A DNA stretch of 64,000 nucleotides from the NCBI RefSeq assembly GCF_022045235.1, contig NW_027266341.1:17050001-17114000 (forward strand), in the 5' to 3' direction. Below are positions 52,511 to 54,433 of this stretch, in pieces (positions within the stretch are counted from its first letter, which is position 1; the number at the start of each line of letters is the position of its first letter). A program made the position numbers and the translations under genes. The stretch is from Haliotis cracherodii (lineage: Eukaryota). The notes beneath the pieces were generated by a model, which had not been told where the DNA came from, searched no databases, and worked only from the letters and a program-made list of their open reading frames with translations.

Positions 52511-53923
52511 CTTAACAAAAACAAAAGGAACATGAAAGACGCGATATGGAAAATCCGTACGTCATACACCACCTCATTTGTGGTACCACCTCAAACATTG
52601 TTATTGACGTGTTACCTTTTTTTAAATAAAAGGTTTTTTAAATCCTTTTCTCTCATGATTCCTCTAATGAAGGTTCTGTCAAGTGAGTGTATGTACAGAT
52701 GTAACATATGAAAGGTATATGCCCTACAGAAGTGAGACAAAAATAAACTATTGTCTGCACGTCTGGGGTAACCATCATTACGATATTCTATCGAAGTCTA
52801 AGTTTCGTCATCACAGACGTAAGCAATCGGCACATGGTATAGCAAGTATAATGTCGTCTTATGGATAGATGCCAATAATATAAAACATTATACGTTTCCT
52901 AATTTGCCAAACCTCGTAAAACACACATTGCCAATTTCCCCATCATGTCAGTATGGTCAATGGACATCAATAGACTGAATGTGAATGCAAAAGACAAATC
53001 ACGCAAGGTGACATGTCATAGAGACAAGCATACAATGATAGATACACGTCTTGTACAAAACTAGGTTTAACCATTACAAAGTCGTTCTTGTCTAGAAATA
53101 TTTATGCATGTTTTGTGAGCAGCAGTCAATTTCCGTTACCATATCGCAGTCATACATACACATTATTAATCTATGTTTACACCTTTCGTCCATAGCAGGG
53201 AAATTAGACATGGATCCATTTCTACATGTGTCACAGCTGTTATTGTCAGAAAAGGTCACGTATTGTGATATGCAATGACAATACAGGACACAAATGGTCT
53301 ACTCTGCCAATGTTGTCCCAATTTCCGCGTGACATTGTGCCACGACTATAGGATCCATAGCATTGGACGGCCCATATGCAAAGGGAAATCGATGCCTAAC
53401 CTAATCCCAGCATTACTGGTCCTTGTATTCAAAGCCATGCTGTGACTGAATTGAGTTGGCGTCCATACTAATGTTTGTAAATTGATAAATTCTATTATCT
53501 ATTTTGTCCCGGTGCTATCTTCATAGGCCTCCTGTGTTAGGATCTGAGTTGAGAGCTTCTTTAAACTAATTACCTACGCATGTGATTGTTGATAAGAATG
53601 GCAAACAGTTTGGGATTAGTGTACTACTCGTACAGCTATTGGTTTCCTGGGAAATTGAAATAGAGCCAGTCTTCTTTCAAACCTTGTATCTTTAGATAAA
53701 CCACATTTTCTGAATTTAACGAGTCTTTAACAACCATGTTTAACCTGATGTCTGTTTGGAATGTTGTTAGATTGGATGAGTGTATACTGATGCGGAAAAC
53801 GCCCATTATCTTTCTGTGCTATATTCATCAACATTCAACTTAAGTTTCCTTTGTTAAATTTTCAACTAACTTCCATTCACTATTTGAAATCCTCGAAGTG
53901 TATTTACTTTACTTAAAGGCAGT

Positions 53924-54110
53924 GGTTGACTGGCATTCTTGGACTTGGCAAATAAGTAAGAAAAACTTAAAACTTTATGGATAACAACTTACAGCGTTAT
54001 CAAGCAAGTTATCTATCCAGCTTGATAACGGTGTAAGAATCTACATCGAAACGTCGCTATAAACAATAAACCATAAAGTCGTTATCCATAAAGTTGTACG
54101 TTTTTCTTAC
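53924..54110 (+). mobile_element. 187-bp fold-back mini-element (Penelope pLTR-like) flanked by a 15-bp TSD
   Basis: Direct repeat ttacttaaaggcagt at 53909-53923 and 54111-54125; inverted arms 53953-53990 and 54076-54113; contains a hammerhead motif and AATAAA. Confidence 0.75.
54019..54058 (+). ncRNA. Minimal type I hammerhead ribozyme, U3-A8 core variant
   Basis: AGC-TTGATAA-c-GGTGTA(agaatc)TACATC-GAAA-cg-TC|GCT. Stem I AGC/GCT, stem II 6 bp, palindromic ACGT mini helix III; predicted cleavage after C54055. Confidence 0.7.
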
Positions 54111-54433
54111 TTACTTAAAGGCAGTTATCGTGCGGTCATTTCACAAACGGCTTGGGTGTGGCTTTGTGTGACAAAATCACAGGACACAATTTAGTGTTTA
54201 TTCTCACTCCGCTCAATTTTGCGAGAAACGTTCAATCTAAATGTTGTACTGCTGACAGAAAGGTAATTCCATTGTGACGTATTTAGCCCACATGTTATTT
54301 TCACTCTTCCAGCTATTTAGTACGTCTAGTTGGCTCTCTTTAAGGCATTGTCATTTTCCTTTCAGAGTCCCTGCCATCGGAATAAAGGTCTTAGCCATTA
54401 GTACTCACATTGCCAGTGTTATGCCACGTCGTC

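Follow-up and report, generated by a model that had tools for sequence, protein, structure and literature searches.

A hammerhead-bearing fold-back element in Haliotis cracherodii as a probable insertion stub of a Penelope-like element family

Structure of the element

The window analyzed here is a 64,000-nucleotide stretch of the Haliotis cracherodii genome (contig NW_027266341.1, positions 17,050,001 to 17,114,000, forward strand). As a preliminary description of this DNA had stated, it contains an exact 15-bp direct repeat (53909-53923 and 54111-54125) that encloses 187 bp and that we interpret as a target-site duplication (TSD). The repeat shares 1 nt with the element on the left, so that 1 nt of the left copy could belong to the element, and at least 4 nt on the right, where the first nucleotides of the right copy match the element as well; because of this overlap, the true stagger may be nearer 12 bp, the value typical of the sister families described below.

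The enclosed sequence consists of two oppositely oriented pieces of the pLTR of a Penelope-like element (PLE). Positions relative to the pLTR are counted on the family majority sequence, with 0 at the predicted cut base of the hammerhead (54055). The left arm (53924-54005, minus strand) is an inverted piece that covers family positions -35 to +86, has a tailed outer end and shows about 9 differences in its 82 nt from the majority sequence. Its outer ~31 nt (53924-53954, minus strand; about +56 to +86) comprise the PLE 'tail', which includes an ATG (53936-53934) that opens the N-terminal PLE frame in a full-length copy. Compared with the family majority, the left arm has lost 40 nt between two AAG trimers, and with them the 3' half of the hammerhead; an AAG microhomology at 53988-53990 (minus strand) marks the deletion. 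The inverted copy with its internal AAG-AAG deletion had been recognized in the preliminary description, which placed its start at 53953; the arm actually runs from 53924. The right arm (54017-54110, plus strand) spans -38 to +54, has an outer end of the inner, tail-less type and carries the hammerhead (54019-54058, plus strand) and the AATAAA of the pLTR (54065-54070, plus strand). The 11-nt junction between the arms (54006-54016) is either filler or decayed pLTR sequence that once continued the right arm towards the initiator, with which it agrees at 6 of 11 positions. The window element has no TATA box.

The arms form two inverted pairs, 53950-53990 with 54076-54116 (41 nt, 90% identity) and 53988-54005 with 54020-54037 (18 nt, 94% identity), and the predicted RNA fold of the 217-nt element has an energy of -66.5 kcal/mol (z = -7.26), with 0 of 200 shuffles equally stable. 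A MITE derived from a DNA transposon was considered and rejected: the two ends differ by the tail, the sizes in the sister families range from 86 to 466 bp, and the sequence is retroelement-derived.

The hammerhead motif

The motif at 54019-54058 is a minimal type I hammerhead (HHR) of the U3-A8 variant, present together with the AATAAA as originally described. It combines U3 and A8 with one extra nucleotide, a 6-bp stem II (one G-U) and GAAA-CG-UC; it lacks loop III, and its stem I has 3 bp. All core nucleotides are present, the sequence is the same as the family majority, and the predicted cut falls after 54055. According to the fold model, helix III could form only in a dimer and would be impossible in the monomer. 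Minimal pLTR hammerheads with the U3-A8 core and pairs of them on opposite strands were described by Cervera & de la Pena 2014 (PMC4209133), where the minimal PLE motifs are reported to cleave weakly and only as dimers. The Cercyon elements of Schistosoma in the same report have U3-A8, the extra nucleotide before stem II, a palindromic loopless helix III and motif pairs on opposite strands 100-700 bp apart; the abalone motif, a putative ribozyme, differs in its 3-bp stem I (2 bp in the sister families) and its mollusc host. The hammerhead model search proposed in the preliminary description came out negative: an Rfam scan of the element gave no hammerhead model match and only a chance miRNA-hairpin match (E 0.1).

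The antisense arm had been suggested to act as a switch that turns cleavage off. The predicted fold bears out the block: the pairing probability of stem II is 0.005 in the whole element vs 0.83 without the left arm, the antisense arm costs the hammerhead fold a predicted 14 kcal/mol, and the active fold is not reached in the predicted structure of the whole element. The notion of a designed switch was not supported, however, as antisense cover of the hammerhead is a generic feature, found in 46 of 94 own-family and 24 of 55 sister-family fold-backs.

The core of the window copy has 0 changes in 40 nt compared with 5 in 52 nt downstream (Fisher p 0.066) and retains all four CpGs. A perfect core was found in 1 of 72 sampled arms and as 9 exact 41-mers genome-wide, and all 12 core bases are intact in 21 of the 72 arms. 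The intactness of the window copy is about what chance would give at ~10% decay, with weak retention possible, and the perfect core is probably the reason why this copy caught attention. Among the copies, CpG core bases are among the most altered (17/72 and 16/72), whereas core positions outside CpGs are less variable than the remaining positions (45/720 vs 301/3024, p 0.002), which may reflect selection either on the source elements or on the copies. Stem II stays paired across families, and at one of its pairs both bases have changed (G-C/A-U, in 3 of the 11 related rows compared), a weak signal on so few rows.

The parent family

A walk upstream from other copies of the family leads through ~280 nt of untranslated sequence to the end of a GIY-YIG-type frame and further to a thumb region and a reverse transcriptase (RT), and in several copies the same hammerhead is located ~280 nt past the end of the GIY-YIG-type frame. 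The GIY-YIG motif was read by eye from broken copies, the fragments giving no match to the Pfam GIY-YIG family, and in a GIY-YIG family search of the genome the hammerhead unit was seen in 0 of 30 loci inspected (of 36 matches). A related copy (L111) gave an RVT_1 match with an E value of 5e-6, below the Pfam cut-off, and 64 protein relatives combine the RT with the same two further Pfam families, the best ones, with 80-84% identity, coming from abalone. In one near full-length but broken copy with short-repeat insertions (L300, G000:C34:13377600-13381000), ORF remains lie between a pLTR piece and a pLTR, and the N-terminal frame starts from the ATG at +74. At L300/L290/L090, two tails 2.46 kb apart flank the ORF remains, which gives a pLTR-ORF-pLTR partial tandem.

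The features characteristic of endonuclease-bearing (EN+) PLEs are thus all found: RT followed by GIY-YIG, the pLTR-ORF-pLTR arrangement, a minimal hammerhead in the pLTR, an inverted 5'-truncated copy, a tail of 30-40 nt at one end and a variable short TSD. The preliminary assignment of the minimal hammerhead and inverted partial pLTR to PLEs is borne out by the parent copies, which carry the same motif. In the window element, both of the head-to-head pieces are 5'-truncated, and the insertion belongs to an old, endonuclease-bearing PLE family, in which all copies examined are broken and mostly 82-98% like the majority sequence. The linker between RT and endonuclease, which in the Penelope/Poseidon clade has no Zn-finger-like motif, showed no extra cysteine motif on inspection by eye, any placement in that clade being tentative.

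Several additional features of this lineage were observed. The RT catalytic motif is KVDD, not YVDD, in this PLE lineage (loci L111, L101, L109, L114 and L072; proteins P0001-P0044); among the 64 relatives, K is found in 37 (abalone, chiton and metagenome proteins) and Y in 23 more distant ones. The tyrosine of YVDD has a role in primer contact. Among the papers listed by a full-text literature search for KVDD together with reverse transcriptase, none dealt with retroelements, judging by title. Head-to-tail arrays of pLTR pieces are present at six loci (L151, L210, L292, L299, L357, L029), of which L151, with ~8 units of 88 nt and a whole minimal hammerhead in each, is closer to the retrozyme layout than the window element. 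Minisatellites with 16-, 44- and 54-nt units derived from the PLE 3' UTR were seen at seven loci (L162, L096, L097, L148, L250, L268, L111). An intron from -22 to +72 that would excise the hammerhead was considered and dropped, the donor and acceptor not being kept in the sister families and no spliced copy appearing in the parses.

Fold-backs in the genome

The genome searched comprises 1.18 Gb. A first look yielded 1774 candidates, 40 of which were scored, and a minimal-hammerhead pattern had 3199 genome matches, mostly from younger sister families, compared with 0 for the reversed control. The hairpin in the window is one among thousands of short Penelope-type remnants in this genome. The younger sister PLE families (L303-L432) share the U3-A8 hammerhead but have a stem I of only 2 bp; two of them were sampled, family C, for which a 30-mer has 983 exact matches, and family A, for which a 25-mer has 1840, and a third sister type with the same hammerhead was seen among the listed matches.

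The own-family sample combined 90 loci of 124 exact matches to an inner 24-mer with 90 of 136 matches to a tail 23-mer, after exclusion of 9 tandem arrays, 4 duplicates and one insertion that was listed twice. The sister-family samples comprised 69 insertions from 70 loci for family C and 44 from 50 loci for family A, after removal of double-listed insertions (1 in C and 5 in A) and 1 tandem array. Adjacent head-to-head fold-backs account for 94 of 166 own-family, 44 of 69 family C and 20 of 44 family A insertions, proportions that do not stand for the genome as a whole, since the anchor sequences preferentially pick up well-preserved copies and an insertion with two arms has up to twice the chance of being sampled. 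The median size of the fold-backs is ~190 bp. The deletion junction in the left arm of the window element occurs once in the genome, and the junctions are distinct in all 55 sister-family and in 91 of 94 own-family fold-backs, from which it follows that fold-backs are made anew at each insertion.

Such an architecture is not new for PLEs: very short insertions have been reported (PMC9977147), as have inverted truncated copies, often with a tail at one end (PMC8557442; PMC3846280). The EN+ insertions of Pen2a/Pen2 in Adineta, with an inverted 5'-truncated pLTR, a one-sided tail and a short TSD (PMC3846280; PMC8557442 Fig. 2), resemble those in abalone, as far as these descriptions go, in the head-to-head pLTRs, the ~31-35 nt tail at one end, the ORF start in the pLTR or tail, a TATATA ~20 nt before TCACT, the TSD and a microhomology-mediated internal deletion. 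The abalone fold-backs differ from them in that the arms are under 100 nt and lack an ORF body, in that the TSD mode is 12 bp vs 8-10 bp, and in that hundreds of copies allow the pairing of tailed and tail-less ends and the 5' ends to be counted.

Outer ends, target-site duplications and 5' ends

The outer ends of the arms are located at about +48 to +58 or at about +84 to +93. Among the 92 fold-backs of the three families with both outer ends intact and an anchor that does not select for the tail, 85 pair a tailed with a tail-less end, 7 have two tail-less ends and 0 have two tailed ends, compared with 46, 27 and 20 expected under independent choice of ends (chi-square 67.8, p 2e-16); fold-backs with an eroded outer end (13, 7 and 2 in the own family, C and A, respectively) were left out of this comparison. 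In the tail-anchored sample of 44, 28 partner ends are at +45 to +62, 15 lie below +45 and one is at +82. The tail-less arm extends further 5' in 39 of 55 sister-family fold-backs (39 vs 12), a difference that cannot tell one RNA from two because the tail-less arm starts 35 nt further upstream. In 5 of the 55, the arms abut without overlap, the tailed arm being confined to +44 and beyond.

TSDs were detected in 17 of 47 fold-backs of the own, old family, 32 of 37 of family C and 13 of 18 of family A, vs 1/150, 0/100 and 0/100 for the respective mismatched-flank controls; the corresponding numbers for single-arm copies are 4/42, 6/25 and 2/24. The mode of the TSD length is 12 bp.

In all three families, a TATA motif at about -71 to -64 is followed by an initiator-like TCA at -43 to -39, and the spacing between the two, with the initiator ~30 nt behind the TATA, is alike despite the differing spacer. 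A TATA/TCACT motif is described in PMC3846280; the Penelope promoter of D. virilis is reported to be internal and TATA-less (PMC2377424), so the type of promoter appears to vary among PLEs. Within the interval -45 to -35, which was chosen after viewing the own-family histogram, lie the 5' ends of 83 of the 194 arms that reach it (46/105 in the own family, 25/60 in C and 12/29 in A). The density of 5' ends is about 5% per nt at the initiator vs about 1% per nt at -30 to -3, the peak having a shoulder of 2-3% per nt that extends to -31. This peak could also be caused by RT stalling. At the hammerhead cut site, 5' ends are not in excess: 23 of 340 arms end there (13/193, 4/95 and 6/52 by family), or 0.97% per nt (p 0.83), family A alone showing a slight excess (1.65% vs 1.01% per nt, 6 arms). 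A footprint of hammerhead cleavage in the 5' truncations, which looked promising by eye, was accordingly discarded once counted.

Origin of the fold-backs

The window element is, with high confidence, a PLE insertion stub without a life cycle of its own, and the explanation that accounts best for the observations as a whole, one that we regard as quite likely, is a head-to-head pLTR stub left by a single PLE insertion and now inert. For the formation of such fold-backs, we consider priming at two sites reasonably probable. The PLE protein would nick both target strands about 12 nt apart; reverse transcription would be primed by one nick at about +55 and by the other at about +90, positions that bound the tail on its two sides. 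It would copy the 5'-terminal region of an uncleaved RNA, whose start at about -41 is suggested by the motifs only. Both cDNAs would be short, at most ~95 and ~130 nt, would often run off at the RNA start and would be joined at their ends via 0-4 nt of microhomology or filler. Priming near the 5' end of the transcript would account for both the small median size and the pile-up of ends at the presumed start, and the lack of a cut-site footprint suggests that the template RNAs were uncleaved. As the same RNA stretch would be copied twice, the antisense arm would be a by-product; the ribozyme with its mirror copy is likely a known by-product rather than a designed switch. The one tail-anchored fold-back with a partner end at +82, a possible tailed pair, speaks against this scheme.

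In L1 twin priming, the 5' part is inverted, TSDs are formed and the junctions show microhomology, the arms being derived from non-overlapping parts of the RNA and the internal primer site being variable; in the PLE fold-backs, the second site is fixed and the arms usually overlap. L1 twin priming (PMC2837659) is one of the known systems closest to the PLE insertions. In vitro, the TPRT reaction of PAc, a Poseidon element of Anolis, involves nicking and extension of both strands from two start sites that bracket the tail, with uncleaved RNA as the template, a predicted dimer and no need for the hammerhead (PMC11167929). The two bracketing start sites, the extension of both strands and the uncleaved RNA have their likeness in the scheme deduced here. 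In PAc, the hammerhead overlaps the ORF start and the start sites lie 111-118 nt into the ORF (PMC11167929), whereas in the abalone family the hammerhead precedes the ATG, and codon 6 holds the outer site. The PAc report describes no strand-specific choice of start site in vitro (PMC11167929), which counts against the scheme proposed here. Tentatively, and with slightly more doubt than assurance, we propose that a single PLE complex allots its two nicks to two fixed start sites at the 5' end of one uncleaved RNA, the cDNAs running off at the transcription start. If so, head-to-head PLE structures would result from obligate two-site twin priming, with one tail as the rule, and the hammerhead would be uncut in the RNAs that serve as templates.

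The inversion of the same stub could in principle also stem from self-priming, with an antisense template, or from snap-back of the first cDNA; palindromes at inverted junctions led to such a proposal for the Penelope elements of Adineta (PMC3846280). Many junctions in abalone indeed lie near short self-complementary stretches, with 1-4 nt of microhomology. Snap-back from the tailed arm, however, requires the tail-less arm to lie inside it, in conflict with the further 5' reach of the tail-less arm in most sister-family fold-backs, and non-overlapping arms cannot arise by cDNA snap-back; an antisense template does not predict ends at the sense initiator, and a TSD at both outer ends, together with outer ends that are fixed and different, fits two target-primed events better. 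We therefore regard this route as improbable. The preliminary description had instead proposed a non-autonomous, retrozyme-like element, which we take to mean a unit transcribed, self-processed and re-inserted whole. The TSD enclosing the whole unit, the intact core and the tandem arrays of pLTR pieces in the own family (L151, L210) would suit such a unit, and metazoan non-LTR retrozymes are likewise described as small, non-coding and PLE-related, with type I hammerheads. Retrozymes are tandem by definition (PMC7229834; bioRxiv 10.64898/2026.07.22.740005), with head-to-tail arrays, canonical hammerheads and circular RNA, whereas the window element is a single inverted pair with one minimal hammerhead and a broken partner, so that there is no tandem unit and no double cut that would release a monomer. 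In addition, it lacks a TATA box, its exact layout and deletion junction occur once, junction pairs are almost all distinct, and the best other match (among the 40 scored of 1774) has 76-82% identity with different junctions. The proposal was abandoned on these grounds, and we consider it the least probable of the readings weighed here.

Hardly more probable is that the host later retained an old PLE stub to serve, within a pre-mRNA, as a self-cleaving element gated by its antisense arm. The insertion is common to organisms B, C, D and E, and the perfect core, the four retained CpGs and the predicted energetic cost of the antisense arm could be taken in its favor. This reading is at odds with the lack of the whole region in organism F, with the same geometry in about half of all fold-backs and with the order of transcription, the blocking arm being transcribed first and nothing being known to release it; moreover, minimal hammerheads of this type are reported to show no monomer cleavage and to be weak as dimers (PMC4209133), or to need the PLE protein (PMC11167929). 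There is also no supported host exon nearby: the candidate exon at 54366 in the preliminary description could not be substantiated, as it has no Pfam match and shows no coding constraint. Between species, just 5 of 16 changes (or 5 of 14) are synonymous in the frames that were tried; one of the changes creates a stop, and one species has a 1-nt insertion.

The locus itself is ordinary, and its interest comes from the family statistics. How head-to-head PLE insertions form and what the hammerhead does are treated as open questions in PMC8557442, PMC3846280 and PMC11167929. The architecture and the U3-A8 core are already published, whereas the one-tail counts and the 5' ends at the initiator inform the mechanism; a literature search found no count of the one-tail rule, no PLE 5' ends at the initiator and no PLE twin priming, although subscription papers or supplements may hold them. 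The counts in three families translate into sharp predictions for the existing in vitro system, namely that each start site is served by one nick, that the nicks are ~12 nt apart, that the cDNAs run off at the cap and that the template is uncleaved. For annotation, such hairpins are best classed as PLE stubs and kept apart from retrozymes, MITEs and miRNA precursors.

Locus history and surroundings

In organisms B, C, D and E, contigs cross from flanking DNA into the element, and their flanks differ by about 4-5%, which indicates that the insertion is old and shared. The search for an empty site proposed in the preliminary description gave no clean one among the joints listed, and the raw reads X18 and X19 have almost no depth on the unique flanks. 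In organism F, one contig joins the flanks without 53857-54233 (377 bp, comprising the element and 52 and 108 bp of flank); this gap was rejected as a clean empty site since the loss takes the flanks too.

Elsewhere in the window, an Atlas search for a distant host ORF gave matches all under 0.9. Two single-exon frames on the minus strand (8707-10527 and 15119-16975) encode proteins of 607 and 619 aa that are 50% identical to each other. Both begin with a signal-peptide-like sequence and lack a Pfam match; carbohydrate-binding folds are suggested by Atlas leads, all under 0.9. Mobile-element remains with zf-RVT and Tc3 transposase matches are located at 11164-11994 and 43180-43533, both on the minus strand.
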